Below, piece by piece: positions 9,058-43,991 of a stretch of DNA of 64,000 nt. The first letter of the stretch is position 1, and every line of letters starts with the position of its first letter. A program made the position numbers and the translations under genes. The stretch comes from Rhynchobatus australiae (lineage: Eukaryota), in assembly GCA_034780895.1 (NCBI GenBank), contig JAUZTB010000001.1, positions 97,611,500 to 97,675,499 on the forward strand, read 5' to 3'. The notes under the pieces were generated by a model. That model saw nothing but the letters and a program-made list of their open reading frames with translations, was not told the DNA's origin and did not search any database.

Positions 9058-10080
9058 TCAGAATCAGATTTATTATCACTGACATATGTCATAAAATTTG
9101 TTGTTTTATGGCAGCAGTACAATGCAAGACATAAAGACGTAAAAGTTACTATAAGTTACAAAAATAAATAAATAGTGCAAAAGAGGAATAACGAGATAGT
9201 GTTCATGAACCATTCAGAAATCTGATGGCGGAGGGGAAAAAGCTGTTCCTGAAATGTTGAGTGTCGGTCTTCAAGCTCCTGTTCCACCTCCCCAATGGTA
9301 GTAATGAGAAGAGGGCATGTCCCGGGGGGGNNNNNNNNNNNNNNNNNNNNNNNNNNNNNNNNNNNNNNNNNNNNNNNNNNNNNNNNNNNNNNNNNNNNNN
9401 NNNNNNNNNNNNNNNNNNNNNNNNNNNNNNNNNNNNNNNNNNNNNNNNNNNNNNNNNNNNNNNNNNNNNNNNNNNNNNNNNNNNNNNNNNNNNNNNNNNN
9501 NNNNNNNNNNNNNNNNNNCAAGAGTCTTTGGTGACAGACCAAATCTCCTCAAACTCCTAATAAAGTAGAGTCACTGGCATGCCTTCTTTGTGATTGAATT
9601 AATGTGTTGGGCCCAAGATAGATCCTCTGAGCTGTTGACACCCAGGAACTTAATGCTAGTCACCCTTTCCACCATTGACCTCTCAATGAGGACTGGCGTA
9701 TGTTCTCCTGACCTCCCCTTCCTGAAGTCCACAATCATTTCCTTGGTCTTGCTGATGTTGAGTGCGAGGTTGTTGTTGCGACACCACTCAACCAGCTGAC
9801 CTATCTCATTCCTGTATGCCTCCTCGTCACCATCTGAGATTCTGCCAACAACAGTGGCGTCATCAGCAAATTTATAGATAGCATTTGAGCTGTGCCTAAC
9901 CATGTGGTCATGAGTGTAGAGAGAGCAGAGCAGTGGGCTAAGTATCCATCCTTGAGGTGCACCTGTGTTGATTGTCAGCAAGGAGGAGATGTTACTACCA
10001 ACCACACTGTGGTCTCTTGATAAGGAGGTCGAGGATCCAGTTGCAGAGGGAGGTACAGAGGCCCAAGTTTTGAAGTTTGT
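9058..10080 (-). mobile_element. Rex1/Babar-clade LINE, RT and 3' end
   Basis: ORF 9571..10005: TGAPQGWILSPLLCSLYTHD...YKFADDATVVG...WCRNNNLALNISKTKEMIVDFRK. Tail reads tcagaatcagatttattatcactgac on +. Confidence 0.9.
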
Positions 10081-10447: not shown

Positions 10448-11170
10448 TCAGAGAGCAATACAGCACGGATACAGGCCCTTTGGCCCAACGAGTTCATGCT
10501 GATCACGTTGTCCACCTAACTCGTCTCAATTTCCTGCGTTCAGCCCATATCGCTCTGGACCCTCCCATCCATGTACCTATCCAAGTGCTTCTTACATGAT
10601 ACCATTGTACTTGCCTCAACCACTTCCTCTGGCAGCTCATTCCATATACTCACTGTTCTCACATGTAAAAGTTGCCCCTCTCGCCCTAAACCTATGCCCT
10701 CTAGTTTTGGACTCCCCTAGGGAAAAGACTGTTACCATCCACCTTATCTATGCCTCTCATAATTTTAAAAACTCCTTTAAGGTCGAACTTCATTCTCCTA
10801 CGTTCCAAGGAATAAAGACCTGGCCTGGCCAACCTCTTCACCTCACACTTATCTGTATTGAAATGCATCACCTCACACTTATCTGTATTGAAATTCATTT
10901 GCCACTCCATGGCCCATTTCCCCAACTGGTCAAGATCCCCCTGTAATCTACGATAACCTTCTTCACTGTCAATAACACCTCCTAATTTCATGTCATCTGC
11001 AAACTTACTGATCAAGCCTTGTGCATTCACATCCAAATCATTTATATAAATAATAAGGGTCCCAACACCAACCTCTGTGGCACACCACTAGTCACCAGTC
11101 TTCATTCTAAGAAACAATCTTCAATCACCATCCTCCACTTTCAACCTCCAAACCAGTTTTGAATTTTGAA
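10448..11170 (-). mobile_element. CR1 LINE fragment with internal deletion
   Basis: ORF 10701..11036: ISKFADDMKLGG...LQGDLDQLGKWAMEWQMNFNTDKCEVMHF fused to LYSLERRRMKFDL..VFKIMRGIDKVD. Confidence 0.88.
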
Positions 11171-22970: not shown

Positions 22971-23591
22971 GGTTATAAGTGGCAGTGGACTGCCTTCTTC
23001 AACTGTTTCAGTCCCTTTTGGTGAAGGTATTATAAATCCAGGACTTACTCTCAGTAACAGTGAAGGACTAGCAATATGTTTCCAAGTCCAGATGGTGTGC
23101 AACTTGGAAGAGAACTGATTTTCCTCCTCTCGTGATAACTTTTGGTCAATCGTGAATAGTGATTTCAGTAGGCAGAGCACAAAACAACATACAGAACCAC
23201 TTTAAAAAGAAATATTGTGCAAAGTGGGAATAAAACGAGGCACTTCCTCATTTTGTGAAAGCTTGTTCATCTTTTCTAGAAGTGAGATTGGCCCATACGA
23301 TAGCACCATCAGCGTTGTCTGTTTGGAGCTACTAGTGTTGACCTACTTCAATGTTTTTGACTTTGTAGCGTAGCCAGGTACTTCTGCCTGAGCAGCATGA
23401 CATTCTCTACTGTCTCTAATCTTACATACAGAGCATCGAATTTGATGAAAGGACATATTAGCAAAATCACACTGAGATTTAAAATCAAATATTTTAATAC
23501 TGAAGGCAAATAGTCATATTTGCATAAATTTAAATGGAAGACACCAGTGAGCTTGTGTTCCAATTCATGAAACTCTTCCCTCTTCCAACAG

Positions 23592-23697
23592 ATGCAGAAG
23601 GGAACCTGTGTCGAAGCAGTCACCTGTTACAGGTAACTCTGTCAATGCACCGCTTCAATGTATCATCAACAGAGCTGCTGCAGAAGCTCATCACGTT
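23592..23697 (+). CDS. RASGRP1: RASGRP1 exon 3 (REM domain): (D)[34 protein letters not shown](L)
   Basis: Acceptor ctcttccctcttccaacag. 106 nt. Similar to human [36 protein letters not shown]. Ends at U12 donor ATATCCTTT. Confidence 0.93.
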
Positions 23698-25354
23698 ATA
23701 TCCTTTTGCTGTAATAATGCTTGATCTGCAAAGCAGGCTAGAATGTAACAGTAGCCTAGATAATAAACATGATGGGCAGGCGAGATGATGTTCACTTCAN
23801 NNNNNNNNNNNNNNNNNNNNNNNNNNNNNNNNNNNNNNNNNNNNNNNNNNNNNNNNNNNNNNNNNNNNNNNNNNNNNNNNNNNNNNNNNNNNNNNNNNNT
23901 TGTCTTGTTCTTTTTAGATATATTGCCGGGCAGCCACATTTCCAACTTGTGAACTGTTTGGGTTATGGAGAGCTGTCAGGAACAGAGCCCTGTTGTAACC
24001 TGGGGAGGACCTGTATTTGGAAGCTGAGATGGGGGGGGGGGGGGGGGTGGATAAAATTTTCCTGTTGCTTCTGTCTACTTTAACCAATATTAAAATGTTC
24101 AATCTTTACAAAGCAGTCAGGATCAGTTTAACTGCTAAAAACATCTTCCCCTCCTCCCTCTCCCAAATGCAAGACAAATGAATATGAACAATCAGTTTGT
24201 GATTCCTGCAATTCCATTTTGCAATACTTAGCCTCACAAAATCATGTGAAAACCAGTGCAGCTGTTTCCTCTAAGGAAAAAACATTCTACTTAAACCCAA
24301 GTTTTATCCATGACACAAAGTGGACTCATACAGATTTTTTTTTACGCACAGGAATACAAATTAAAGCATGGCAAGATAATGTTTGGCCCTCAAAGTTTGT
24401 GTGCAGAATAAACACCAATCATTCTAATCCTACTGGCCTGCCCTCATCACACATCCATTTAATTAACTTTCCAACTACCACTAATCTAAGCTTTTCTGAA
24501 TTGTTGATGTGACTTGTGGATCAATCTTTATCTCTGCAATGGATTCAACATTCATTAGTTTCCCCTTCTTCATGTCCTCAGTTATTTATATATTGTTTGT
24601 GACTTTATTGTATAAAAATATCAAGAAAAAACATTTAATGAACGTGATACTTAATTGCTCAAAGAATATATTTGGTTTCCAATCTGAATCTAATACAATG
24701 TATATCTTTAAAATGTTAGTTGTGATAAATTTAAGAAGTGATACACTCATGGTGTGAAAGATTATCATGCACCATCCAGACTTGGAGAGATATTACTACT
24801 CTTGCATTGTTACTGGATCAAAATCCTGGGACTCTAACAAAAAGAAGGTAGGAAAACCTTTGCCACATAGAGTGCCTCCTTTTCAAGAGCAGTTGGAGGC
24901 TGGTACAAGTTCCAAACAATACCCACATTCCAAAAGTGAATAAAGTTTTGTATTCAGCATAAAAGAAAAGCAGTTTACAATAAGAAGAGATACAAGTGGC
25001 AGGCTACATGCAAATAGCTCCAGCACTTGTCACGTATGCAGATTATTTGATTAGTTCTAGAAAATGAAAGTTTAGTTCACATCTCATCTCTATACCTTGA
25101 ATTATTTGAAGCCTTTGGCAATGACATCAGTCATTATTCTAATCTTTTTCTTCCCAATAAGGTTGCTCTTTAATTATATTGGACAAAAATCTGGTCAAAA
25201 ATTTGGATTCTATCATCTATATTCTATCATTTATACTCACCTTTGTGGATTTTATTTAATGTTCCTCATACAAATTCAGTTTCCACTCAGAGTTTGTGAA
25301 ATAAAAAGTTGAAAATATATCCTCCCCAAATTCACTCTACCCCTTGAATGTCAC

Positions 25355-25620
25355 CCCTACTCAGTTGGTGGTGCTCTTCTTTTTGAATAAGAAGATTGAG
25401 AGTTCAAGCACCACTCCAGAGGACAACAATCTGGACTGATCCTGTAGTGCAGTACAGAGGGTGTAGACTGATCAAGGTGGTGTCTTTTGGACACAATCTT
25501 AAATTGAGGGCCCGTTCGCCCACTTGGTTAGATCTAAAATGATACTAGAATACTTTTTCAAAAATCATGCGAGTTATCCCTGAGTGTAATATGGTCACAG
25601 ATTATGTGTTGTAAATCATT
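25355..25620 (+). mobile_element. Deu-domain (SacSINE1/AmnSINE1-like) SINE relic
   Basis: gttcaagcaccactccagagg...gtgcagtacagagggtg...ggtggtgtcttttgga...taaattgagg resembles the DeuSINE core as I recall it. Confidence 0.55.
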
Positions 25621-26289
25621 TTGGAATCCCATTGGTTCCAAAACAACTTGATGCTTTTGTTGCAGTTCTGTCAATACAAAATCAGATATCTCAATTTCAA
25701 TGCGAATGAAAGATTTTTTTTAAAGAAATTGCTTTGCTGTGTCTTTTATGTTCCTTTAAATCCACCAAAACTGAAAAGTTTTCTATTTTGTTCACCCTCA
25801 TGTACTTATCTAGCTTCCTGTAAATGCAACAATACTATTAGTCTCAACAATTACTTGAGGCAATAATTTCCATTTCTGACCCCTCTGTGAAAAGGTGTTT
25901 CTCCTGAATCCTTCATTGGAATTACTACTGTGAACTTTTATTAATGGCTGCACTTTTGTATTCCCTATGTCCCCCTCTCTATGCCTATCCTCCTAAAAAC
26001 CCCCAATGGGTCATCTGTCAATCTTTTCTGTTCAATCTGGTGTAATCTCTCAGTTGTATCATTCTGGTAAATTTTTATTACACTATATTTCAGCACCTTA
26101 ATATCCTTTTCGTAATATGAATTTGAGAGCTGTATGCAGATATCCAGGTTCAGTCAGAATTTCATACAAGTTTAACATAACTGCCCCATTCTGTTCACTT
26201 AAGTGATTTGTGCACCTGTATCTCCTGATCTCTGGGGTGACAACTTAGTTACTAACTATTAATGTGACTTCCTACACTGATACCTAAGT

Positions 26290-27840
26290 TGTTAATGTAT
26301 ATGACAAACAGCACTGATCCCTGCAGTACACTGTTGGTCATAGTCTTCAAATCACAAAAGCAACCCTTCAGTTTGTCAACTTGGACCCTAAGCTTTTGGA
26401 CTAGCTTTCCATGTGGGACCTTGTCAAAGGCCTAACTGAATTCCATGTGAACCATATCAACTGCATTGCCTCGTCAATATATTTCGTTACCTTTTTAAAA
26501 AGAACTCACTTTAAATTAGTCAGACAGGATCTCCCACCAATGAATTCATGCTGACTGTCCCTGATCAATCCCTGCCTTTTCACGTGTAGACTAATTCTGC
26601 TCCTCCAACTTTTTGCCAATAATTCCCTACCACTGACATTAGACTAACTGGAGTATAATTACCCAGCGTATACCTGCTGCCCTTCTTTAATAAAGATACC
26701 ACATTTGCTGTCCTTGAGGCATCTGGCATCTCACCTGTGGTCAGTGGAGCTTTAAATATCTCTGTCAGAGCCCCAGCAATCTCCTCCCTTGTCTCCCATA
26801 GCAGTCTTGGGGATACATCTCATCGATCCCTGAGGATTTATTCACCTTTAGGCCTGCTCAGACATCTATTGTCTCTTCCTTTTTAATTTTAACCAGCTCT
26901 AGAATTTCAGCTGAAATCTCCAGCCACAATATCTTTCTCTTTAGTGAATACAAATGAAAAGGATTCATATGAGACATCGCCCATATCCTCTGGCTCCACA
27001 CACAGATTGCTTCTTTGGTCCCTATTGGGCCCCATTCTTTCCCTGGCTCCCCTATTGCTCTTATTAGACATAAAATATTTTGGGATATTCCTTAATCTTA
27101 TCTCCCAGTGATACTTTGTGGCAACTCTTTGCCTCTTTTTATATACCTGATGGGCCTCCCACATTTTCAGTGCGCTATACCTGTCTTATGCTTCTTTTTT
27201 TTTTATTAAACTCTTTATCCCTTGATATTCCTGGACTTGCTGTCCATATGGGAACATTTTGACCCTGACCTCTCCCTATTTCTCTTTCATAAGATTCCCA
27301 CTTCCCGAATGTAGATTTACCTGCAAGTTGCTGCCCGCAGTCTACATTTGCCAGGTCCTCTCTAATGATATTGAAATCAGCCTTCCCCTAATTCAGTTAC
27401 CTAATTTCAGGACCATCCTTATCTCTTTCCATTATCTACTTTATAACTTACTGAATTATGGTCACTATCCCCAAAGTGGTTGCCCACTGATACTTCACCA
27501 CTTACCCAACTTCATTCTCCAGGATTAGGTCTAGCACAGTCACAACGCTTAGTATTACTATTTACATACTGGCACAAAAAGCTCTGCTGGACACACTTTA
27601 TTTAAAATTCCATCTCGTCCAGTCCTTCACACTTGGGAGATCCCAGATAATACTGGAGAAGACAAAATTCCTTTTAAACCTTTCTGTGATTTGCCTATGA
27701 ATTTGTCCTTCTATCTCCCACTGACTGTTGGAAAGCCTGTAGTCTCATCCCAAAAAAAGTAATTACCTCCTTTTTATACCTAAACCCTATCCAAATGGCC
27801 TAATTTGAAGAGCCTTCTAAGATAGCCTCCCTCATGCTTT
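26290..27840 (-). mobile_element. CR1 LINE ORF2 fragment (endonuclease-linker-RT, with deletions)
   Basis: Minus-strand peptides RERMGPNRDQRSNLCVEPEDM..SFSFVFTKEKD, and atgtgggaccttgtcaaaggc on + (AFDKVPH on minus). Confidence 0.8.
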
Positions 27841-28586
27841 ATTGAAAATGAATAATGTCCATTTTCATAGATAATACATGAAGTTGTATTTTATAGCTTA
27901 TTCTCCAGTGTTACTGTACCCGCCAATTAAAAGTTTAATTCTAACCTGTGGACCAAAGCTTTGCACCTTATTCTATACATAGCAAACTTCGTGGAGACCC
28001 AGAAATTTGCTTTGATCTGCAAACTTTTGACCTACTGATTCGGGACTCCAAATCATTTACATAAATAGAGAACGTCAGTGGTCCCAGCACTAATGCACTC
28101 CAATTCCTATATTTTGTAACTTTCTTTAACCCTTACATTCTTGTTTTTACCTCATTAGCAAGATTGCTATCTATTGTTTTATGTCCCTTGACTTCAAATG
28201 TACTGATCTTGGTTGTGACTTTATCTTAGCAAAAGCCATGCTCTGAGGTGGTATATTATTGTAGAAAATATCAGAAGGTCACACACACATAGGGAAAAAG
28301 CCTCAGTGGAGCAGAGACCAAAGGGATCTGGGGCTACAGATGTACAAATCAATAAAATTTCAGGTGTCTTTCCCTTAGACTGAACTCCATCCCTACAGCT
28401 GAGTTTCCCTGATGATTCCAGCAGCATTTGCTGTAATAAATATACCAGAAAGTATAGGTGAACCAAGCTAGAATACTACACTTTGAATCAAATTACTTGA
28501 CCAGTGACACTAAAATTAACTTTCTTTGTCGACTGTAAATGTCTCATGAATTTTTTAAGTGGTTTTCATCCAGTTTGTTATGCGCA

Positions 28587-29118
28587 TAGAACATAGAACA
28601 CTACAGCACAGTACAGGCTCTTCGGCCCACAATGTTGTGCTGACATTTTATCCTGCTCTAAGATCTAACTAACCCTTCCTTCTCACATAGCCCCATATTT
28701 TTCTATCATTCATGTGTCTATCTAAGAGTCTCTTAAATGTCCCTAATGTATCTGTCCCCACAACCTCTTCAGGCAGAGCGTTCAACTCACCCACCACTCT
28801 CTGTAAAAAAACTTATCCTGGACATCCCCCTTATACCTTCCTCCAATCACCTTAAATTATGTCCCCTCGTGTCAGCCGTTGTTTCACTGGGAAAAATGTC
28901 TCTGACTGTCCACTCGATCTATGTCTCTTATCACCTTGTACACTTCCATCAAGTCACCTCTCATCCTCCTTCTCTCCAAAGAGAAAAACCCTAGCTCACT
29001 CAGCCTATCCTCATAAGACATGCTCTCCAATCCAGGCAGCATCCTGGTAAATCCCCTCTGCACCCTCTCTAAAGCTTCCACGTCCTTCCTCTAATGAGGC
29101 GACCAGAACTGAGCACAA
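28587..29118 (-). mobile_element. Young CR1 LINE 3' fragment
   Basis: ORF 28884..29081 EALERVQRGFTRMLPGLESMSYEDRLSELGFFSLERRRMRGDLMEVYK. catagaacatagaaca tail. Confidence 0.9.
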
Positions 29119-29999
29119 TAACCAATGCTACAATTTCATTTGGGCACTTTCCCAACTTCAAACTTGCTCTTTCTCTCCGTATCAAGCCTGGCTGTTTGTG
29201 TTTGCCCTACCTTTATTTCTGCCCCTCCTTTTTATTTTTCTTTCATTTATAGATTCTGATCATTACTTACCAATAGGCCTGACTATACAACACACTCATA
29301 ACGTTAACAAGACAGAGATACAGAGGCTTAACTGCCCATTCAATGGCTCCATTATTTCAACATATTGCCTTCTGTGCCACTTGAACTAATTTGCTTTCTC
29401 TTTGACCTGAAGCATGAACTGTTTCTCCTTCTACAGACGCTGCCTGACCTGCTGAGTTTTGCCAGCATTTTCTGTCTTTTATTTCAGATTTGCAGCATCT
29501 GCAGTTTTTGTTTTACTTTTCAAGATTAGTGTTTGCAACTATTATCAGCAGAACTCGTGTCAGATGGAGAACACCGACACTCCAGCTGGTCAGGCTCATA
29601 GGAAGTGGAGGCTCGAGGGCTTGGTTCCCCGTGCAGGAGCTGGGATCTAGCAGCAATGCCATCTCACCACAGGGTGGTAGTGTGGAGTCAGCATCGGGGA
29701 ACTATAACAGGAACAGAAGATGCTGGAAAGACTCAGCAGGTCACCAGCGTCTGCTAAAGTCAGTCTCGGCAGCAGAGAGGCTGGGAGATGGCAGTGGGTG
29801 GGATTTCACTAATAGGCTGCAGGAACAGAGACGCAAGAGACTGCCGATGCCGGAATCTGGAGCAACGTGCAATCCACTGAAGGAACTCGGTGGCTTGAGC
29901 TGATTGTTTATTGGGATTCCAACATGCTGCTCGACCTGCTGAATTCTTTGCAGCCGGAATAACGGAGCAGATGCTCTGCAAAGTGATCACTCAGTCTGC

Positions 30000-30135
30000 A
30001 TTTGGACCAATCTGGCAAACGCAGATTGGGCGATCACATTGTGGGGGACCTGCACTCAGTCCACAGGAGTGAGCTGGAGTTGGGGGTTCTCTGCCACTTT
30101 AATTCACCATCCCAGTGCCACCTGGGCGTGTCCGT
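30000..30135 (+). mobile_element. Penelope GIY-YIG endonuclease fragment
   Basis: Peptide KRRLGDHIVGDLHSV...HFNSPSQ. Confidence 0.65.
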
Positions 30136-30572
30136 GGTCTCCTGCAGTGTTGCAACAAGGACCGATGAAAGCTGGAGGGACGACCTTTGGTGTTGCAGCT
30201 GGAGCATTTCCCCAACCTTCACTGACTTGCTCTTTCTGTTTGTATCAGGACTGACTGCGTTTTTGCCTCTTGTCACTTTTTCTTTCATTTGTTTAGTGTG
30301 GCCTGCTCTATATATGTCAATAGACAACATTAGCATCATGTAACAAACAAAAGAGCTCCACTTCCACATTATTTTACCCTAAAAGGAATGCACTTGTTCA
30401 GATCTCCAGTGTCCGTAGTTTCATTCATTTTCATTTTACTGGGAACTGTAATGTGACTTGAATTTCTCTAGCACCATTCACATCCCTGTCAGGATATCCC
30501 AAATTAGAGATATGGAATTAAATTCACTCTCACAGAATTTATGTGAAAAAAAATAATATAAAATCTACATAA

Positions 30573-30774
30573 GTTAGGCTGCACGGAGTACTGTGTGCAA
30601 TTCTGGTCGCCCCATGATGGGAAGGATGTGGAGACTTTGGAGAGGATGCAGAAGAGGTTCACCAGGATGTTGCCCGGATTAGAGGGTGAGAGCTACAAGG
30701 TTGGACAAACTTGGGTTGTTTTCTCTGGAGTGTCGGAGGCTGAGGGGAGACCTGATAGAGGTTTATAAAATTAT
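30573..30774 (+). mobile_element. CR1 3' fragment running into a gap
   Basis: EYCVQFWSP, RLDKLGLFSLECRRLRGDLIEVYKI. Confidence 0.88.
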
Positions 30775-32239
30775 NNNNNNNNNNNNNNNNNNNNNNNNNN
30801 NNNNNNNNNNNNNNNNNNNNNNNNNNNNNNNNNNNNNNNNNNNNNNNNNNNNNNNNNNNNNNNNNNNNNNNNNNNNNNNNNNNNNNNNNNNNNNNNNNNN
30901 NNNNNNNNNNNNNNNNNNNNNNNNNNNNNNNNNNNNNNNNNNNNNNNNNNNNNNNNNNNNNNATTATAGCTAGGTTGCTATCTCATGTTATACGCACACA
31001 TATAAATAGCTAAATTTGCCGATGCAAATAATGGAAAGGCTTCGAAACAGTATCAAATTTCAAAAATTTGGCTGTATAGTGAAAAAGTTTGTGATGTCAT
31101 GGGCGTTGATATCTTTGTATCATCCTGCCTGAAAATGATTTGGGGCAACTATGTGCAGTATGCATCCATTCCTATCTCACCACCACTTTATCATCTCCAC
31201 CCTCCAAATTGTCAGACTGTTTATCTGATGTCTGGTTCTGGATGAGCGGAAAATTTCCAACTCTTCTGGGTAGATGTCTGAGTGTGAACCAGATTGTTTG
31301 CAACATCACAATCACATATGACTCTTAAGTTTACCTGTTTCCATATCTGTTGCTGAGACCCTCATACTTGCAGATTGGGAGACAAGGTAGAAGGCACCTT
31401 TAAAAATTAAAGATTAGTATCTTTAAATACTAAATTTAAAAATTAAGTTTGTTATTTTTAATAATTCCCATATGAATTTGAGTTTTAACTAATTATATTA
31501 AGAAATTAACCTCTAATAATTTTCTTTAATGTTAAGAGTTTTTAAATTTCTGATTGTCAGAGAAAAAAATCCATGACAGCTTTATTAATTATCATAGCAC
31601 CACTCCCTGCTTTGCCTAACATCAAAGCATCTCAGGAGTGCTCTTGCAGCAGGGCCTCCACACTGTGCCACCTGAGGCCTAGTTGCAGTCCAGGCTTAGG
31701 TCAAGGGTTCAGAGAGGCATTGCATATTCACCCCAGATGTATGTGGTTTTGTGGAGACTGAGCTACAGATCCAGCAGAGTCTGGCTCAGAATCCTGCTGC
31801 TCAACTCCTGCCCAACAAGCCAGGGAAAAAAGACATCAGTGCACCTGAAAATAAAGAGATTAAAACTGGACAACTGTACAAGTAGCTCAATGCCACAATC
31901 TTTGTTTGCTATGATGAATCATACCCAGCATTAAAGCAATTTCCTTTGATCAGCTTCTGTAACTTATGTCAGACAGATCCTTGGTAAAATATTGACTTTA
32001 GTTTAATGACTTATTTTAAATATATTTTGGAGTCGCAAATAATTGCCTCAATGTTGTTCCTCTTAGGAGCTCTAAAATTACACTTTAAAGAGACATTGGT
32101 GGTGTGTAGTTTGAAACACAATGAAAGACAGATGGCCTATATCTTACTCAACACTGTCTTCCAGAAAATGTTTTTCATATTGGTCTCAATAATGTTTTAA
32201 AACTTTAAATAAGAACTGTTTTCCTTAATGATGACCTAC

Positions 32240-32302
32240 ATATCAGAATGCTTTAGAGCAAAACTGTGCTGCAGCTTGCCTGAAGATCTGTTACTTTATA
32301 AG
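32240..32302 (+). CDS. RASGRP1: RASGRP1 exon 4: (L)YQNALEQNCAAACLKICYFI(R)
   Basis: 63 nt after the AC acceptor. Donor ag|gtgagg. Similar to human [21 protein letters not shown]. Confidence 0.92.
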
Positions 32303-33529
32303 GTGAGGCTTTTCCTGGAAATGACAACCACAGCTAAGTAAAGACAAAAAGCAAAGTGTCTACCTGCAGTAACTGCATGTCTCATTTTAGGCTCAATTTG
32401 AAAGATTGTGGTTAAGTCCTGCAAACATTTCTTTAAAAATGATAAAAGCTTTTTTTTCATCTGTGCAGTCTATACATAGACAGTCCTTATATACATGAGA
32501 ACTGTGTGAAATCATATGGCTCTAAGCAAGACCAATATTTCAAATGAAAGTTCAATAAATAATGTCAGAAGTATTAAACACAGGAAATACTTATCTGACC
32601 AACTTCCAGCTCTACCAGTTAAACATACAAAGAAGGATGCAAGTGTTAAGAAACCCATATAAAATCAGAGAATCAGAGTAGAAAGAGACTATTTGGCCCA
32701 CTGGCCAGTTCTTTACAGATAGCTGCAGCTTTTAGTTAAATGTAAATTGCTTAGAGATGGTGCATTTTGTCCTAGTGCAAAATAGGGTGTCACCAGAAAA
32801 AGCACTTAATTCATACACACTTGCTTTAAGCAAATACTGTTCTGGACTTCAGCCATCTAGTAGAGTTAGAAGCTGTATCATGCATTTACAAGTCACAAGA
32901 TAGAATTTGGGGTTACATAAAATGGAAGGAGGAGAGAAATTTAGAGGGAGGTATTCAACAGTGCAGTTTAATGGCAATAACCAACACCCTCATGCAGGTG
33001 CAAGGTGCAAGTGTTGCCTGTCTGCAGATGGCAGCTCATTACACTCAAGGCTGGAGAGTCACTAAAACTAAGGATGATGTGCCAGCAAGGATCCTTTAAG
33101 TTACACGTGGTTCCCACCTTTCTGTACGATATACTTGTTTACTTATTTCACTGGGAGTCAACAATGAAGATTGCAGGTCACAAACTTTTGAACTAATCTC
33201 TGTTCCTAAATCAGAAATACACACATGACAATGATATTTACATAATGTGATTGTCATTTCCCCAATGGATTTCAATCAAGGTGAATTGGGACAAGAAATG
33301 CCTGAAGTAATTTCCTGAAGGACAGGACTTCAACAGGAAATATGTACAAAACACTTTAAAATATGCAAAGCATCTTTCCCTTTGCAACTTACGTATGAAA
33401 ATCTGGTGCAAATAATTTCCTCATCTTCTTTCTAGGCAAAGCTTGCTGGTGGGTAAAAAGGATATCAGTATGGTCTTAATAGTTTTGAACCATTGGGTAT
33501 TGATACTATAAATACTAATAACTCTGAAA

Positions 33530-34020
33530 CTATACAATGCATAGTTTTGGTCTCCTTTTTCAAGGAATATTATAATTTAGAGATAGAGCAGTGAAGGTTG
33601 ATTGGACTGAAGGATTTGGCTTATGGAGAAGGCAGCTTACCCTATCAAGGTCCCTGCAAGAATTGTATAGGAGTTCATGATTGTTGGGAAGAACTTGATA
33701 GGATAGATGCTATGAGGAGGTCTCTCCTGATTGGAGAGTCTGGATCTAGGGAGCACATACTTAGCATAACAAGTTCATAACTTAACAATGAGATGATGAT
33801 GAATTTCTTCTCTGGTTACATGTCTTTGGAATTCTCCAAGTACAAATCTATAGAAGTTGATAGATTCAAGACAGATAAATTTTTGTACTACAGAGAAATG
33901 AAGGGCTATGGAATTTGGACAGAGGAATGGAATGATCAAGGTCAGATCAACCATGATATTGAATAGCAGAGTAGGCTCACGGGGTTAGTTGGTCCACACT
34001 TGTCCCCTTTTCTAACATTC
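33530..34020 (+). mobile_element. Old CR1 3' fragment
   Basis: Degenerate CR1 C-terminus and 3' UTR (gtcagatcaaccatgat...). Confidence 0.65.
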
Positions 34021-34415
34021 TTTACTTCCAGATTGCACTGTGTATATATATAAGTTAAATTGTGTTATGTTATGAATAATGAAAATAAACTATTTGGTAT
34101 TTTTTATGTTTAGATTGCCTGAAAAATAAGATGGTGAGAGGCACTCTCAATAATAAGTGATTATTATTATGATTATGCAAATATAATAATAATCTCACAA
34201 ATAAGATTGTGATGAGTATCACAAGAAATGAAACAATCAAATTTGTCCAATAAACTGATGAACAATTTAAGACTGGGAACTAGAGTCATAATCTTAATAT
34301 GGCCTGAAATCTTTCTAAATCATCATTTTAACAGCTTTATTAAATGTATATGAGGTTAAGCAGATGTGAGTTCTTTGCAAATTTCATGTCAATCTAAGTA
34401 ACCTAAACAAACCAG

Positions 34416-34758
34416 GCTTGCAATACAAAAGCCTGAAAGCACGTACCACCAGGCTCAAGAACAGCTTCTATCCCACTGTTAATAAGACTATTGAACAGTC
34501 CCCTTGTACGATAAGATGGACTCTTGACCTCACAATCTACCTTGTCGTGGCCTTGCACCTTATTGTTTACCTGCACTGCACTTTCTCTGTAACTGTAATG
34601 CTTTATTTTGCATTCTGTTATTGCTTTCCCTTCTATGGGAATAACCCTTCTGTTATTGCTTTTCCCTTCTATCAATGCACTGATGTGATGAAATGATCTG
34701 TATGGGTGGCTTGCAAAACAGTTTTCCACTGTACCTCAGTAATAAACCAATTTACCAT
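34416..34758 (+). mobile_element. Rex1-like LINE 3' end
   Basis: YKSLKARTTRLKNSFYP, followed by a 3' UTR ending aataaaccaatttacc. Confidence 0.8.
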
Positions 34759-35029
34759 TTATCAAATTTACTTGTTCCAAAAACAACACAAGTATTAAAT
34801 CAAGTCACATATGAGAATCAACAGTCTAATTAACTGATTTATATTTGAGATAGAATCCTATCATGAGTGTAGAGATAGTGGGCTAAGCACGTATCCTTGA
34901 GGTGCTCAAGGACCTAAGTTGATTAGGTTCCTGGAAAGGAATCTAAGTTCCTGGAAAAGAAAAGCATAACTTTAGTATTGTACGTTTACCTATTGGTTTC
35001 TACTAGAGATAAATTGAAGACACAACAGG

Positions 35030-35631
35030 TCTACAGCAGATGCAATCTCATTGGCTCTCCACTCGGCTTTGGAGCACCGAGACAACAGCAAAACACATGT
35101 CAGGCTGCTGTTTATCGATTGCAGCGTGGCATTCAACACCATCATCGCCTGAGTAAATATCAACAAGCTTCAAACCTGGGGCCTCTGTACCTCCATCTGC
35201 AACTGGATCCTTGACTTCCTTATTTTGGGAGACCACAATCAGTGCACATCAGTAATAACATCTCCTCCTCGCTGACAATCAACGCAGGCGCACCTCAAAG
35301 ATACGTGCTTAGCGCACTATCTCTACACTCAAGACTGTGTTGCTAACCACAGTTCAAGCACCATCTATAAATTTGCCGATGACACCACTGTTGTTGGTAG
35401 AACCTCCAGATGGTGATGGGGAGGCGAACAGGAGTGAGATAGATCGGCTGGCTGAGTGGTGTCGGAACAACAACCTTCTTCCCCTCCACCATCAGATTCC
35501 TGAGTAGTCCACGATCACTACTTCATTTTTGCATTAGTTATTTATTTTGTAATTTAAAGTAAATTTATGTCTTTGCCACAAAACAACAAATTTCATGACA
35601 AATAAGTCAGTGATTATAAACCTAATTCTGA
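35030..35631 (+). mobile_element. Rex1/Babar LINE fragment with internal deletion
   Basis: AFNTII, CNWILDFL, YKFADDTTVVG, WCRNNNL, then a jump to the 3' UTR ending taaacctaattctga. Confidence 0.85.
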
Positions 35632-36494
35632 AGTGATGGGTCCAGAAATACGTTAGCATCTGAAAACGAGTGTTAAATTAGTCCTGTATTGGGAAACCTC
35701 ATCAATTTTTTCTTTGAGGACCCAAGCAGCTACATATCATTGTACACAAGACTTAAGGGGCCGTGCATGATATATAGATTGTGCACACACAAGCATGGCA
35801 GAGCTAGCACAGACTGGTCTAGCCACAGATTGTGATGGATAATAGTGCCAAGGCCAGGTTGAGAGCAGCTCGATTGGGTGGTGTGGAGGACAGGACCTGT
35901 TGAAAGGATTGGGATCATCGAGGGAATGGGGAGGGGAGGAGTGTTGGTGACACAGTCAGGGATCTGAATCAGCGACAAGAGCAAGGGTTGTGAAAATGAC
36001 CAACAATCAAAGTTCCTGTTGGACTTATCTGCAAGATGATCGACATCTTGGACACTCCAGCCACAGAACAAGCAATCCTGTCCCCTTTAAGCAAACACGA
36101 ACAGACTTCAGCTGTCCAGTTAAGGGCAGTTCTTTGTGTGTGGCCAAGCTGCTCCTGGACTTTGGGTGCACAATTAATTTTACACAACTGATGTCCAAAG
36201 CTGCATTGCCCAGGTATGGTCTCCATGCATGTGTATGCCACACAAGCAGAAAGAATCCAGGACAAATGATAGTAACTGCACAATCTACATTCTAAGGATT
36301 TGATCCAAATTTCAGGGTAAATTTCTTTGGGAGAGGGTGGGGAGGCAAGGGTAAATATATAGAAAACCCACTTTGCAGAAGAAATTCTAGCTTAGGGTTT
36401 GTTAAATATGTGCTTTTCTTTTAGAAATATGACCATAAATTAATTTCAAAAGCAAAATGCTAAGAATGCAGGAAATAAACGTTGGTAGTTAATT

Positions 36495-36665
36495 ATTATC
36501 ACACATACAGGGGAAAAAATTGTTTTGCATGCCATCCATACAGAATCATTAAGTACATTGAGAGAGCATAAAGGGAAAAGCAGCAAGAGAATGCAGAACA
36601 TAGTGCTACAGTTACAGAGGAAGTGCAGTGCAGGTAGACAATAAGGTGCAAGGGCCACGAACTAG
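36495..36665 (-). mobile_element. Rex1-like LINE 3' UTR fragment
   Basis: gtgcagtgcaggtagacaataaggtgcaagg shared with the 1365, 34416 and 37835 copies. Confidence 0.7.
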
Positions 36666-37834
36666 NNNNNNNNNNNNNNNNNNNNNNNNNNNNNNNNNNN
36701 NNNNNNNNNNNNNNNNNNNNNNNNNNNNNNNNNNNNNNNNNNNNNNNNNNNNNNNNNNNNNNNNNNNNNNNNNNNNNNNNNNNNNNNNNNNNNNNNNNNN
36801 NNNNNNNNNNNNNNNNNNNNNNNNNNNNNNNNNNNAAGATAAGCAAAAAAATGTTAGGATTACACAGCAGGCAGGGCAACGTCTATGGAAAGAAACATGG
36901 CTAATGTTGCAGGTGGATAACCCCCCCAGCAGTTTTGAGGTCATTAACCTGAAACATTGGCTGTTTCTCTTGCCATGATTACTGTTCTGTCTGCCTGTTT
37001 TTATTTTGTATAGGCTATCATTACCAAAGTGTGGTTTGTCAAAGAACAAATCAGCCAACTAGCTATGGTAAATGCAACTATTATAAGACTATCTTGAATG
37101 TCTCATGTAACTTGGCTTTAATTCATTTTCAGTATACCTGTAGTCCAGTGTGGGTAAGTGGAATAGATTCAGTTGCCTGATCTGGGTCTGACAATCCATT
37201 GTCACATGGACGCAGAATTTGTTGGTAAATGCCAGTAGCTCCAAATGCTGTGTCCTTCAGTATGCTTCTCAGCTGGATTCCCTGTGGAATTCAACTTTGG
37301 AAATAGCTTTCAGATCCTTCACAGGGTTGTTAGAACTGGCAATAGGTTCCTATTGATCTCAGTGGGGATTGGAGAACTGTGGTGAAGTAAAGAGGACTGG
37401 AAGTTACTTCTTTAAAAATTATGTTTTATATAATGTTTCTTATATCTTTTAAATATTTTTAACTATTTTATTTTTAAATAATCTTTAAAAATCTTTAAGT
37501 TCTTTACTTTAATAAACCAGACAGCTTTGATAGCTGGAGGCAGGGCCCAAGCACCCGTCAAAGTTTTCAAGGGAGATTTGGTGATGGGGCTTCTTGAGTC
37601 CATCATTGGGGGCATGCCACCTCTTGAGCATCATTGCCGATCTCCAGGACACTTCCAGTCAGCAGCAAAGGCCTGAGAGGTGGCTGGGAGTGTCCAGGAG
37701 TGGGAAGAAAAGGGATGAACAAGGATGGCAAATGCAGGCAAAAGTCCCATGCCATTAAGACCCAATTTGAAAATAGTACCTGTGATATAACTCAGCCCAG
37801 TTAAGGTACTGATACTAATCCATAATGTAGAGTT

Positions 37835-38325
37835 AATGGTAAATTCATTTATTTTTGTCACATGTACTGAGTTACAGTGAAAAACTTGTCTTGCATACAG
37901 TCCATTCAGATCAATTCATTACCCCAGTGCATTGAGGTAGTATAAGGTAAAAACAATAATAGAGTACAGAATAAAGTGTCACAGCTACAGAGAAAGTGCA
38001 GTGCAGGTAGACAGTAAGGTGCAAGGTCACAGTGAGGTAGATTGTGAGGTCAAGAGTCCATCTTATCTTTCTAGGGAACCATTCAATAGTCCTATAACAG
38101 CTGGATAGAAGCTGTCCTTGAGCCTGGTGGTACGTACTTTCAGGCTTTTGTATTTTCTGTCCAATGGGAGGGGGAAGAAGAGAGAATGTCTGGGGTCCGG
38201 GGGGTCTTTGATTATACTGGCTGCTTTACTGAGGCAGGAAGAAGTGTAGACCGAGTCCATGGAGGGAAGGCTGATTTCTGTGATGTGCTGAGCCACGTCC
38301 ATGACACTCTGCAGTTTCTTGCAGT
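37835..38325 (-). mobile_element. Rex1-like LINE 3' fragment
   Basis: ORF 38063..38302 SLPSMDSVYTSSCLSKAASIIKDP...YKSLKVRTTRLKDSFYPAVI. Confidence 0.88.
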
Positions 38326-38490
38326 CATGGTACTTTCTGTTCTAAGTCATGTTGTAGCTTTTAGTGAAAGGTGATAACAATGGGACAAATCTGAGTGAAG
38401 TCTCTGCCGTTGATATATTGCTATAAGTTAAAATAAAGGTATTGTTACATTACTTATGCTGATGTTAATATTTACATGGTTCTGTTGCAG

Positions 38491-38622
38491 GTACTGGATT
38501 ACCGAGTTCTGGATTATGTTTAAAATGGACAATAGTCTTTCAGAAACAATGGAACATTTTCAAGAGCTGGTGAGAAAGAAGGGTGAAGAGTCACATTCCC
38601 AGTTTATCGACACCTCACAAAT
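38491..38622 (+). CDS. RASGRP1: RASGRP1 exon 5: (R)[43 protein letters not shown](I)
   Basis: Acceptor tctgttgcag, donor at|gtaaga. 132 nt, phase 2/2. Confidence 0.95.
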
Positions 38623-39249
38623 GTAAGACATAAACTTACATTCCATTTCTAAAAGAAAAAAATGCAGAGTAAGCCACCAACATCACCTGCACAATTAGAC
38701 TTGCTTAAGAATAGGTATATGAGAAAAGAGGGAAAATTGGGGAAAAATTTTCAACACAATATTTCTTAGTCTTAAATTAAATTGTAGCCTTACAGAGTGT
38801 GACATCATACAAAATTTACTGTGAATTGTTTTTTTTAATGAACTTGATTGTGTGCTTTCTCAAACCATTTTCTAGAAAAAAAGAACTCTCAGTTAAACAA
38901 TACATTATTTCAGGTTGACTCAAAGTCTCCCTAGCCAAGGAAACATATTTCATCACGTTGCTGTAATAATAACAAGCAATTAGCAATTGTCAATGACTAT
39001 CTTTTGAAAGTCTCTCAGCAGCAACTTACAGAAAATGGTCAAATCTTCTAAAGTTTCTTAGTCATTCAAAGATATTAATACATTTTTAAAATCTGAAAAA
39101 CAAAAAACTGAAAAATTAAAATCTTTTAAGAAAATCAAAAACCAAGGCAAAGCTGAAACCTCTAAATATGTTTAAATATCTTTAAACACTTCAAAATATC
39201 TAAAGTAACAAACTTAAAAGAAACTTGGGAAATTTGGAAGATTTTTTAA

Positions 39250-39505
39250 ACGATGGATATGGAATGGACAATTCAGGACTGAGATAAGGAGAAATCTCTT
39301 CACTCAAAAAGTGGGTGAGCTGGTGGAATTTACTATCGCCTAAAGCAGTTGAGGCCAAATCATTAAATATACTACTAATGACCAAAGAGATCTAGCATCA
39401 TGGGGAGAAAGCAAGAATAGAGCACTGAATTTGGATGATTAGATATGATCATATTGAACAATGAAGCAGGCTTGAGGTTTAATAGCATACCCCTGCTCCT
39501 AATTT
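39250..39505 (+). mobile_element. CR1 3' fragment
   Basis: gagataaggagaaatctcttcactca...gtggaatttactatc...ccctgctcctaatt. Confidence 0.65.
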
Positions 39506-41439
39506 CCATTTTTTTTACAGAAATAACTATATGAATGATCTAACTTTTAACCGAGGCTCATGAAGCCATGCCCATCATTAAAATTAGTGGCATCTTGATC
39601 GTGCCAAATTCATATGATAAGAGTTGGGCTGTTCGCACAAGTTCGAACTCCTACTGCACGTCATGATGATCCATTATTACAGGGTAGCTTATTGNNNNNN
39701 NNNNNNNNNNNNNNNNNNNNNNNNNNNNNNNNNNNNNNNNNNNNCATAATTGGTCATGTAAATTTCTGGTAGGACACTCCTTATGAGATTATAACCCATT
39801 CTAATTTAGTCATTATTACTTATTATTTGTTCTTGTAACCACACATTAGAATCTTCTAAATAATTCATGCATTTGTATCTTAGCATATATCACTTTAAAA
39901 GTTCTAGTTTTCACTTGTATGTTCTGTCAATGCATAAACATGGTATCTTGAATTTTCTGGAGGCTTTTAAGTAATATCTAAATTAATAGCGACTTTGAAA
40001 AACTATAACCATAAACTATAAATGGCTGGAACTGTTGCAAACAGGAAGATTTACCTCAATCGAGGTCATCTGGAACAGTTCTGGAAGGCAGTGATGTTAG
40101 TACTGGCAAATGTAAGATTTTGCAATTTTCTACACATTATAGTTATGTTATCGTGAAGCATTCTGGTTGAAAAAAAGTGTTAATCTATATTCCCTAACAA
40201 AGTATAGAATCATCTCTCCTTATTGCAGGTTTTTCTTTTGTTTCTGCCAATAATCAAACATGCAAATTCTTTGTTACTGAATTATAAGCAGTTTGGTCTG
40301 TAAGGTCTTATCTGTTACAAACTGAGTTATGATAGTCCATGCACATACACTGCGGACGCTAGAGCTGTCAGAAAGAAGAAACTTTCTGTTTGTGCGAGTT
40401 TATTTGCAATTCAGGTTCCCAAAGTAAAATAATTTTATAGTCAATGTGTGTGAATATTGAAATAGTCCAGTTTGTAATAGGACAAAGACAAAACAGAATG
40501 CAAATGGTGGAATCTAGAACAAAAGCAGAACACTCGAAATCAGCAGATTAAACAGCAAAAGGTGCAAGTCGCCATCTCAGGTCAAGGGTTGATTTATACA
40601 AATGCTGCTTGACCTGCTGAGTTCTTCCAACATTCTGTTATTGTTCCAACTTATGTTAGTTTTAGCTGTAAATCATGGGCAAAATAGCAAAAATAAAACC
40701 TTTTTATATAAACAACTTGCTTGTGAAGAAGTTAAGTTTTGAGAACTGAAACTCCAAATGTCTCCAAATTAATCAAATCAAGTAGTCCTTCAATTAAGAC
40801 TCTGTACATACAGAAGATTCTTACCTAATAGATTATCCATTTCAAACTATCTCCATCCCCAGCCAAGCAATAATTTTTCTAGGCAAAATTATTTCAATTT
40901 TCTGAAAGCTTTCCTATTGTGCAAACATAGACTCATAAGCCTCCAAAAAAGTATTTTTGATTTTTGCAGGACTGAGATTATGCTGTTATGTCTGTTGCTG
41001 TTGCTTGTAAAGTTGTAAGATTCCACTACTCAGCAGAATACCAAAAGAATGGGAATAGCAATATTGCAGTATCATAGATTAGGTAATAGCTGTAACACAG
41101 AGGGACTTTCCTAGCATGGGAATGGGTAGAAGAGGGATTACTCAATTCTGAAAATGAGGAGTTTGAAGTTGGTATAATATCAGAAGGCAGGCAAGGATAA
41201 ACAACCAGCAGGGACACATCATTAGAGAAGACAATCGAGGTCATCGGACTAGCATGTAGGTATTTTAATGAAACAAAAAANNNNNNNNNNNNNNNNNNNN
41301 NNNNNNNNNNNNNNNNNNNNNNNNNNNNNNNNNNNNNNNNNNNNNNNNNNNNNNNNNNNNNNNNNNNNNNNNNNNNNNNNNNNNNNNNNNNNNNNNNNNN
41401 NNNNNNNNNNNNNNNNNNNNNNNNNNNNNNNNNNNNNNN

Positions 41440-41593
41440 NNNNNNNNNNNNNNNNNNNNNNNNNNNNNNNNNNNNNNNNNNNNNNNNNNNNNNNNNNNNN
41501 NNNNNNNNNNNNNNNNNNNNNNNNNNNNNNNNNNNNNNNNNNNNNNNNNNNNNNNNNNNNNNNNNNNNNNNNNNNNNNNNNNNNNNNNNNTCA
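41440..41593 (+). CDS. RASGRP1: RASGRP1 exon 6 (inferred, mostly inside N gap; only the last codon TCA and the donor are visible)
   Basis: The sequence right after the gap is tca|gtaagt (Ser codon plus consensus donor, phase 0), matching the expected ...FRRIS end. The start coordinate is extrapolated from the expected ~154 nt length, not observed. Confidence 0.6.
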
Positions 41594-42089
41594 GTAAGTC
41601 TGGTGTCAATTCTCATAAGGAAATGGGGGGGAAAAGATCTGATTTCTGTTTTAAAATTATCTCCTTTTGAACATGCAGAGGAAGACAAGTTTCATCAGGT
41701 TACTCATTTGAGCTTCACACACCTACAAATAAACTATATAGTAAACAGTTGTGATTGTTCTCAAAATGGCTGATGGTGCATGGTAAATTGTTAAATACTG
41801 ACAACAGCAGAAAAAGTGTAAAGAGAGTGATCCTTGTACTTCATTTACAGTGCAATCATAGTCCAACAATTAATTGAAAATAAATATACCCCCAACCTAG
41901 TCTCAGATTTCAAGGATTGCTTTATATTGCCCTCTCTAAAATCCCATCTGAATTGCTAACAATTTGTTATTGAAGTGACATTTTCATATTTCCATGGTGA
42001 TAATACTTATGCACAAAAGGATTTTGATAATTTTGCTGCAGTGAAAAATATCTTTCACAGTTTTTCCAGAAAATGCACACAACCTTTAA

Positions 42090-42460
42090 CATTCCTCTTC
42101 ATAGTGACGTACAAAGCAATGTCAACTGGAAAAAAAAATGTTGTGGTCTAGTCTCCATCGCATCTGGTCTCCAACAGCTAGTTAGCACACAACAATATCT
42201 CACAAACCAATATATTATCAGCTTATCCCTTTTTCATCTTGTTGAGTGATAAATGCTGGCCAGGGAATGGAGAGCTCCCTATTTCTCCTTTTGCATGGTG
42301 TCTTGTGTTATTCTCTGTCCACCCTCAGTGAACAGTTGGTGCTTTGGTTTAACATTTCATTTGAAAGATAGTTTCTCTGGCAGTGCAGTCCCTTTTATGT
42401 TGTACCAAAGAGACATAAACATTTAGTGCTCTGGAGAGGGGCTTGAACCTAATAACCCCA
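42090..42460 (-). mobile_element. Deu-domain SINE relic
   Basis: ggtttaacatttcatttgaaaga...ctctggagaggggcttgaacc is the reverse complement of the core seen at 25400. Confidence 0.55.
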
Positions 42461-42489
42461 ATAAAAATGCAAGATAATAAGAGCAAGAC

Positions 42490-43409
42490 TGGGTCACATG
42501 TCCTCTCAAACCTGCCCGACCATTTGACAAGATTATAGTTGATCTTCAACTCCCCTAACTTCTCTAGATTCCCTAAAAGTCTATCAATCTCAGATTTGGA
42601 TATGCTCAATGATTGACCACCTACAACCCTTTTGGGGTTGAGAATTACAGAGATTTACAGTGCTCTGAGTGCAGGAATACTTTCTGACCTCAGTTCCAAA
42701 CGTCTGATCCTTTACCCTGAAACCACTCTAGATTTCCCAACCAAAGGAAGCAATGTCTCAGCATCCACCCTGCTATGCCCTTCAGGTATATTGTATGTTT
42801 CAATAAGTTCACCTCTCATTCTTAACCCTAACAAATATAAACTTCTTAATCTTTCCTTATCAAACAGCACTTTTATCCCAGGAATCAGTCTCGAGAATAT
42901 TTATTGCTTTATCCCCAAAGCTAATTCATTCATCTTGAGATAATGGAACCAGATCTGCACATGGTGGTCCCAAGTGTAGTCTCATAGAAGCTTTGTATAA
43001 TTGTATTGACTTCCTTATTCTTGTATTCCAACTTGATGTTGCAAAGACCAACTCTCTGTTTACCTTTCTAATTGTTTGTGAGTACTATCTCTTCATTTTA
43101 AAATGTTCTTTATGTTATTCCTTCCATCCGAGTTTGGCTTGTTCACATTTCCCCACATTATATTCCATCTGCCACCTTCTTTTTCACTCACTTCAACTGT
43201 CAAAGAAGCAATCTCTTTGTGTCCTCCTCATGGATTACTTTCCCACTCAGCTTTGTATTGTCATCAAATGTGAATATATTAGAACCAATTCTTTCATGCA
43301 AGTCATTAATGTAGGACTTAAAAGCTGAGGCCCAAACACTTCTTTGCAGGACTTATAACCTGCCAATATGAAACTTTCACTCCAACTGTTTTAGTCTGTG
43401 AATGAATTC
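42490..43409 (-). mobile_element. Old CR1 fragment
   Basis: CR1 3' UTR plus degenerate RT (tcacatttccccacattatattccatctgcca, similar to WQMEYNVGKCE). Confidence 0.7.
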
Positions 43410-43991
43410 NNNNNNNNNNNNNNNNNNNNNNNNNNNNNNNNNNNNNNNNNNNNNNNNNNNNNNNNNNNNNNNNNNNNNNNNNNNNNNNNNNNNNNNNNNN
43501 NNNNNNNNNNNNNNNNNNNNNNNNNNNNNNNNNNNNNNNNNNNNNNNNNNNNNNNNNNNNNNNNNNNNNNNNNNNNNNNNNNNNNNNNNNNNNNNNCACC
43601 AGTTGCCATCCAGCAATATTTCAAAGTCAACTTAGGAATGCTTAAATATACAAGACATCCCTTGTATCTTCAGTCCTCTCCTAAGAGATGCTTCATGGTA
43701 CATGGCCAATGACATTTTGCCACTGGTGCCAAACGTGACCATCCTTGACTGGACATGATTTTTCCTTCTCTATTTGCAGGTTGGTGGAATGCTGAATCAG
43801 GAATGTCTGTGCATGTTTTCATATCAAGTTGTTCAGAACTTTCTGCCATTTAAAGGAAGATGTCTAAATAATTAACCGCAATTGTGACTTCACCAACCTA
43901 TCAAAATATGTTTCACCATTTAAAGGCAGGATGAAATAAAGTTGATAATGATGGATAACAATCAGAAAATGACAAATTTTGATTTACCCAG

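Follow-up and report, generated by a model that had tools for sequence, protein, structure and literature searches.

Members of the RASGRP family are known to carry minor (U12-type) introns. The supplement of PMC6717393 catalogues minor introns for human and mouse RASGRP1-4 and, according to a passage of PMC6865273, 100% of RASGRP genes hold one. In the PMC6717393 entries, the RASGRP1 minor intron measures 6,927 nucleotides (nt) in human (chr15:38519372-38526298) and 3,754 nt in mouse; in both species the 5' site ends in ATATCCTT(T/G) and the branch sequence is CCTTAACC. Table 3 of PMC1557818 gives the RASGRP4 minor intron as AT-AA in human and mouse. Excerpts of other reports describe retention of the Rasgrp3 U12 intron in mice with spinal muscular atrophy (PMC5224493) and of Rasgrp3 and Rasgrp2 introns under impaired minor splicing (PMC5224493, PMC12332006). 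The features that define U12 introns, including an optimum branch distance of 11-13 nt, are set out in a section of PMC3584512, and AT-AC introns make up about 26% of human minor introns in a passage of PMC10639083. The passages searched of two wide minor-intron surveys (PMC10639083, PMC7367187) do not name RASGRP genes or sharks, and their supplements may list the present intron or related ones from fish. No published study of the RASGRP1 minor intron in a cartilaginous fish was found; the MIDB, IAOD and U12DB databases may list the intron. Here, we analyzed intron 3 of RASGRP1 in the batoid fish Rhynchobatus australiae, which lies in a window of 64,000 nt (assembly GCA_034780895.1, contig JAUZTB010000001.1, positions 97,611,500 to 97,675,499 of the forward strand). 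Positions are given within this window, and the features are collected in Table 1.

Our reading, which we hold with a probability of about 96%, is that this intron has AT-AC ends and U12-type signals, that the minor spliceosome likely removes it and that it likely came down from the one ancestor of the four RASGRP genes. It is the orthologue of the catalogued mammalian minor intron and, as such, is already known and ordinary. Human and mouse RASGRP1 share with it the gene, an AT-starting consensus 5' site and a CCTTAA branch. The human flank, CCT/ATATCC, appears to fit the same Thr-Leu/Tyr position as in the ray, judging from the flank itself rather than from a DNA alignment. The ray intron differs in its nominal length of 8,542 nt, in a branch motif that ends in T rather than C and in its repeat content. 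An initial annotation of the window had given the length as 8.5 kb, which is unremarkable beside the human length listed in PMC6717393. The same annotation had stated that mammalian RASGRP genes carry minor introns, and this is in print (PMC6717393, PMC6865273, PMC1557818, PMC5224493 and PMC12332006). RASGRP2, RASGRP3 and RASGRP4 of mammals resemble the batoid genes in having one minor intron per paralogue, as is the case in all four batoid genes. The AT-AA termini of human and mouse RASGRP4 and the ATATCTTTT site of their RASGRP3 contrast with AT-AC and ATATCCTTT in the batoid, which is nearer to the consensus. Compared with U12-type AT-AC introns in general, the 5' site, branch, branch distance and non-zero phase are all alike, with no difference of substance.

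Both ends of the intron are read directly in the sequence. Exon 3 ends in ATCACGTT at 23697 and is followed by ATATCCTTTTGC from 23698, where ATATCCTTT matches the 5' consensus RTATCCTT. The intron tail, TTTTCCTTAATGATGACCTAC, finishes at 32239, the next letters are ATATCAGAATGCT, and exon 4 starts with ATATCAG. The candidate branch adenosines at 32227 and 32228 stand at -13 and -12 from the 3' end, within the U12-type distance of about 11-13 nt. Pyrimidines make up five of the nine bases between the branch and the AC, leaving no space for a tract. On both strands of the window, ATATCCTT occurs five times (4e-5 per position, real site included) and TCCTTRAY with an AC 4-14 nt after it occurs twice (1.7e-5 per position, real site included). 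Multiplying the two motif frequencies roughly and allowing for six equivalent registers of the junction gives about 4e-9 for the presence of both signals at the protein-fixed junction by chance. Chance coincidence was dismissed because both motifs sit exactly where the protein alignment places the junction.

The genome holds genes for the minor spliceosomal small nuclear RNAs U12 (146 bits), U11 (115 bits), U6atac (136 bits) and U4atac (103 bits), all above the Rfam cut-offs. U6atac gave 15 matches with falling scores. A second U11 copy (G000:C74:29826863-29826997) scores 73 bits, loses similarity past the Sm site and is likely a pseudogene. Positions +5 to +10 of the 5' site form Watson-Crick pairs with the 5' end of U11, with flanking wobbles, and +4 to +9 pair with U6atac. 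With one A bulged, 32217-32229 form 10 Watson-Crick and two G-U pairs with U12 nt 16-29; with this stretch as the probe, the branch site ranks first by duplex energy among 405 intron sites. Together with the two signals and the protein junction described below, this pairing to the genome's own RNAs upholds the U12-type AT-AC assignment of the initial annotation.

Joining exons 3 and 4 forms a Leu codon from TT and A, restores ITL-YQNAL and lets the frame run on (YQNALEQNCAAACLKICYFI). All 56 residues of the joined exons are identical to P0002, the RASGRP1 protein of a sawfish, which bears out the in-frame ITL-YQNAL junction proposed earlier. We scanned all 37,050 donor-acceptor pairs between 23600-23794 and 32100-32289, of which 3,493 were open and in frame. 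Identity to P0002 at 56 of 56 residues was reached by only six pairs, and these are one junction in six sequence-identical registers (termini AT-AC, TA-CA, AT-AT, TC-TA, CC-AT and CT-TC). Just one register combines standard termini (AT-AC) with ATATCCTTT at the intron start. ATATC stands at both 23698-23702 and 32240-32244, so read alignments can slide the junction by 5 nt, including to a spurious AT-AT. The ranking of junction pairs was the same with human P0048 as the reference. An alternative is that the main junction uses a nearby GT-AG or GC-AG pair (donor 23711 or 23633, AG 32246) recognized by the major spliceosome, with the U12 signals as relics. There are 15 GT-AG and 14 GC-AG pairs that are open and in frame, and the 23633 donor lies in a good U2 context. 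Against this, every such pair adds or deletes residues relative to P0002 and P0048; the best GT-AG pair, 23711 with 32246, scored 271 versus 289 and inserted two residues. The pair 23633 and 32246, which the initial annotation had named as a possible refutation, places the AG seven bases inside exon 4 and proved to be in frame, but it removes 24 codons of the REM domain relative to P0002.

The homologous proteins point to the AT-AC junction as well. Among 120 homologues, 104 had anchors in both exons, six in exon 4 only and 10 in neither. The exact junction spacing was kept by 91 of the 104, which argues against a displaced GT-AG junction. In seven of eight chondrichthyan homologues (T/V)LYQNAL is uninterrupted. 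The eighth, the Callorhinchus model P0007, reads TLYPF, which is the donor translated and suggests that a holocephalan has the same donor. The donor was translated as YP after the end of exon 3 in eight homologues, and residues of the intron end were read into exon 4 in 12, together affecting 17 of the 120 (P0007, P0016, P0020, P0026, P0051, P0054, P0061, P0067, P0068, P0073, P0076, P0078, P0081, P0091, P0108, P0110 and P0115). These read-ins are likely gene-model errors, although some could be real cryptic isoforms. As likely errors, they agree with the earlier prediction that exons 3 and 4 would be mis-modelled by GT-AG-only gene predictors.

The sequence comparisons support the host gene as RASGRP1 of a batoid fish. 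Exon 3 matched human RasGRP1 in the PDB (4l9m) with E 7e-10, compared to 0.019 for RasGRP4, and the closest proteins to exon 9 came from skates and sawfish (97-98%). A midpoint-rooted tree was built from exons 3, 4, 5 and 9 (13 rows, 190 columns), with nine of the 120 homologues as references and no named RASGRP2 or RASGRP3 rows. The gene fell in a 96/95 clade with human, coelacanth, turtle and newt sequences and chondrichthyan RASGRP1, next to the sawfish protein (187 of 190 identities), and this tree supported the RASGRP1 identity given initially. On exon 9 alone, coelacanth RASGRP4 ranks above coelacanth RASGRP1, which raised the option of a RASGRP4 identity; the tree and exons 3-5 led us to reject it. 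In P0002, the junction falls at residue 61, within the RasGEF_N domain of Pfam (residues 10-105), which agrees with the REM domain placement. The number of the intron is also correct since the first two coding exons precede the window. By tblastn, the window itself contains coding exons 3-5 and 7-15, and one later exon lies downstream. The exon for P0001 residues of about 186-236, expected within 38622-43991, was not found by tblastn and probably falls in a run of N.

Three further RASGRP genes were found in the genome, and in each of them an AT-AC intron interrupts this same codon, always in phase 2. Those on C76 and C84 have complete introns of 3,011 nt and 3,577 nt, respectively, both with ATATCCTTT at the donor and CCTTRA ten bases before the end. 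The best PDB match of the C84 gene is RasGRP2, and the C76 gene is RASGRP3-like by elimination, among references that include no named RASGRP3. The third is RASGRP4-like: its C78 portion pairs with coelacanth RASGRP4 at 95/94 in the tree, its donor is on C81328 (1999, plus), and its CCTTGA branch and AC are on C17933 (1431, minus). A genome-wide search with a branch plus exon 4 pattern gave four matches, exactly at the four RASGRP loci. The deepest split of the tree parts C76 and C84 from RASGRP1 and RASGRP4 and all four share the site; therefore, the intron is likely older than the duplications that produced the four genes. The initial annotation had dated the intron to the jawed-vertebrate ancestor. 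That age was understated because all four paralogues share the site. We consider it probable that AT-AC in all four ray paralogues is the ancestral state and that mammalian RASGRP4 drifted to AT-AA. As a separate observation, the RASGRP3-like donor (G000:C76:124569358) has the consensus sequence ATATCCTTT; the donors of human and mouse RASGRP3 read ATATCTTTT and score low in the PMC6717393 entries. The consensus U12 sites, intact in four of four paralogues, also speak against their being relics beside a GT-AG junction.

Several observations weigh against our reading, and the first come from transcripts. None of the runs listed is on record as RNA from this organism, and 18 of the 24 entries were guessed to be RNA. 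Four runs of related organisms, guessed to be RNA, were compared with 23400-38800, and the exon cover in letters was back-calculated from contig depth bins. No read or contig spanning 23697^32240 was among the 15 of 992 joint rows listed, which repeats dominate. Cover lends the junction indirect RNA support in two of six run-exon cells, where it fitted exactly. In run X6, a contig covered 107.1 letters of exon 3, where 107 are expected at the AT donor and 42 or 120 at the GT donors, and run X1 covered 61.0 letters of exon 4, where 61 are expected at the AC acceptor and 54 at the AG acceptor. The remaining cells gave 141.5, 71.2, 109.0 and 56.1 letters, the last being exon 4 in run X10, which is nearer to the 54 of the AG at 32246 than to 61. 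The X10 value favors the GT-AG alternative, as does mouse Rasgrp1, for which the use of cryptic 5' and 3' sites exceeds 10% in cerebrum, spleen and thymus (PMC6717393, in the entries cited above). However, the X6 and X10 contigs pass 23629 by at least 39 letters and so read through the GT at 23633. Taken with the protein spacing and the paralogues, we find a main GT-AG or GC-AG junction very improbable. In run X2, a 414-nt contig with a depth of 460 joins exon 5 (38487-38622) to LINE-like (long interspersed nuclear element) sequence matching 31193-31233 (41 letters), and the exon 4 bin is without cover. Either an alternative exon that arose from a repeat in that relative or an artefact of the repeats could account for this contig.

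Other points on the same side concern the signals, the assembly and the paralogues. The last base of the branch motif is T where the consensus has C. The first rank of the branch site in the pairing test rests on a margin of 0.1 kcal/mol and, with a wider U12 probe (nt 11-28), the site was outside the best six. The last 20 nt of the intron are 65% pyrimidine, within the span of 55-75% for the gene's eight AG acceptors. The initial annotation had stated that there is no polypyrimidine tract; this holds weakly, as it fits the 9-nt gap between branch and AC with its five pyrimidines but not the last 20 nt. This moderately pyrimidine-rich 3' end would suit one of the rare AT-AC introns that are spliced by the major (U2) spliceosome, a subclass described in a passage of PMC1557818. 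The 5' site ATATCCTTT lacks the U1-type purine-rich +3 to +6 of that U2-dependent subclass, the branch sequence complements U12 at a U12-type distance, and the human and mouse orthologues are classed as minor in the PMC6717393 entries. We regard U2 splicing of this intron as exceedingly unlikely.

The intron contains 288 N, with 100 N at 23800-23899 (102 nt past the donor) and 188 N at 30775-30962; its length is nominal for this reason, and scaffolding may be what connects exons 3 and 4. An assembly artefact, in which the two exons were scaffolded over a gap and the length or content of the intron is wrong, would also be in keeping with the scatter of the RASGRP4-like gene over C82, C81328, C17933, C4658, C1036, C78 and others, with exons 2 and 9 on different large scaffolds. 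This scatter is a sign of a fragmented assembly. For that gene, the 60 kb of C78 before exon 9 lack exons 3-5, which were found on small contigs, and its donor and acceptor ends, being on separate small contigs, are linked by homology only. For RASGRP1, the sequence is unbroken between each splice site and its exon, the class call is independent of the interior, and the exon order follows the protein, so an artefact would alter the length and not the class. We give this explanation scarcely any weight. Lastly, a backwards control of the branch plus exon 4 pattern gave two matches versus the four real ones. The four were trusted because the loci were found independently by protein search.

Within the intron, 1,596 of the 8,542 nt have matches at other places in 353 kb of genome sequence. 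The initial annotation had proposed CR1, Penelope and SINE insertions. LINE-like reverse-transcriptase fragments are present, and the one at about 26382..27185 is putatively CR1-like by its motifs. A six-frame Pfam scan of the intron gave nothing significant (one weak match in 12 frames, E 0.12). ARAGORN found no tRNA genes in 23000-33000, and there were no Rfam matches in the window. The intron also contains a second ATATCCTTTT, at 26101, and, at 27089, a motif that resembles a branch site and precedes an AG; no exon linked to these motifs was found. Intron 2 contains two RVT_1 fragments on the minus strand, at 9574-10080 (E 3e-12) and 10704-11087 (E 3e-4).

Table 1. Coordinates of intron 3, its splice signals, flanking exons and repeats in the window.
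Feature	Position	Strand	Basis or remark
RASGRP1 coding exon 3 (REM domain), 106 nt, last two bases TT from Leu codon	23592..23697	+	tblastn with P0001/P0002; PDB 4l9m match
Possible cryptic U2 donor CAG/GTAACT, exonic	23633..23638	+	frame remainder 0 with AG ending 32246
U12-type AT-AC intron 3, phase 2	23698..32239	+	nominal 8,542 nt including 288 N
U12 5' splice site ATATCCTTT	23698..23706	+	direct sequence; pairs with the genome's own U11 and U6atac
Decayed LINE-type reverse-transcriptase fragment	about 26382..27185	-	matches genome open reading frame carrying Pfam RVT_1
Multi-copy repeat, LINE 3'-end-like	28585..29120	-	up to 11 overlapping matches in 353 kb; very high contig depth
Two short multi-copy repeats	29399-29523, 29827-29900	.	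matches elsewhere in genome
Multi-copy repeat akin to 28585-29120, opposite strand, cut by N run	30583..30774	+	
U12 branch point sequence TTTTCCTTAAT	32219..32229	+	direct sequence and U12 pairing; candidate branch A 32227 or 32228
AC 3' splice site	32238..32239	+	
RASGRP1 coding exon 4, 63 nt, then ordinary GT donor	32240..32302	+	tblastn, 100% identical to P0001/P0002
RASGRP1 coding exon 5	38491..38621	+	tblastn

The pairing and exchange steps of U12 splicing are established biochemistry, and removal of this intron would follow them. U11 would pair with the 5' site, U12 would bind the branch sequence so that A32227 or A32228 bulges out, and U6atac would then take the place of U11. The AC 12-13 nt past the branch would be picked by distance, and ligation would form the TT/A Leu codon within the REM domain. 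If the intron is retained, a stop is reached at 23786, 65 codons from the start of exon 3 and ahead of the catalytic domain. Because the stop precedes that domain, the intron-retaining message would likely be degraded. By analogy with what has been proposed for mouse Rasgrp3, slow minor splicing could limit RasGRP1 output. A bolder proposal is that the minor intron acts as a switch with a bypass. Slow minor splicing would let the major spliceosome use the exonic donor, joining 23633 to 32246 to give an in-frame RasGRP1 minus 24 REM residues, or a repeat-derived exon would be joined directly to exon 5, so that cartilaginous fish would make an isoform that lacks REM; in addition, the ray AT-AC would be ancestral to the AT-AA of mammalian RASGRP4. 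We consider this combined proposal improbable.

Neither of the two points that follow from our preferred reading, removal of an ancestral AT-AC intron by the minor spliceosome, would surprise splicing specialists. For annotation, the exon 3-4 junction calls for AT-AC-aware gene modelling. For evolution, a cartilaginous fish has kept one minor intron at a single codon in each of its four RASGRP paralogues.

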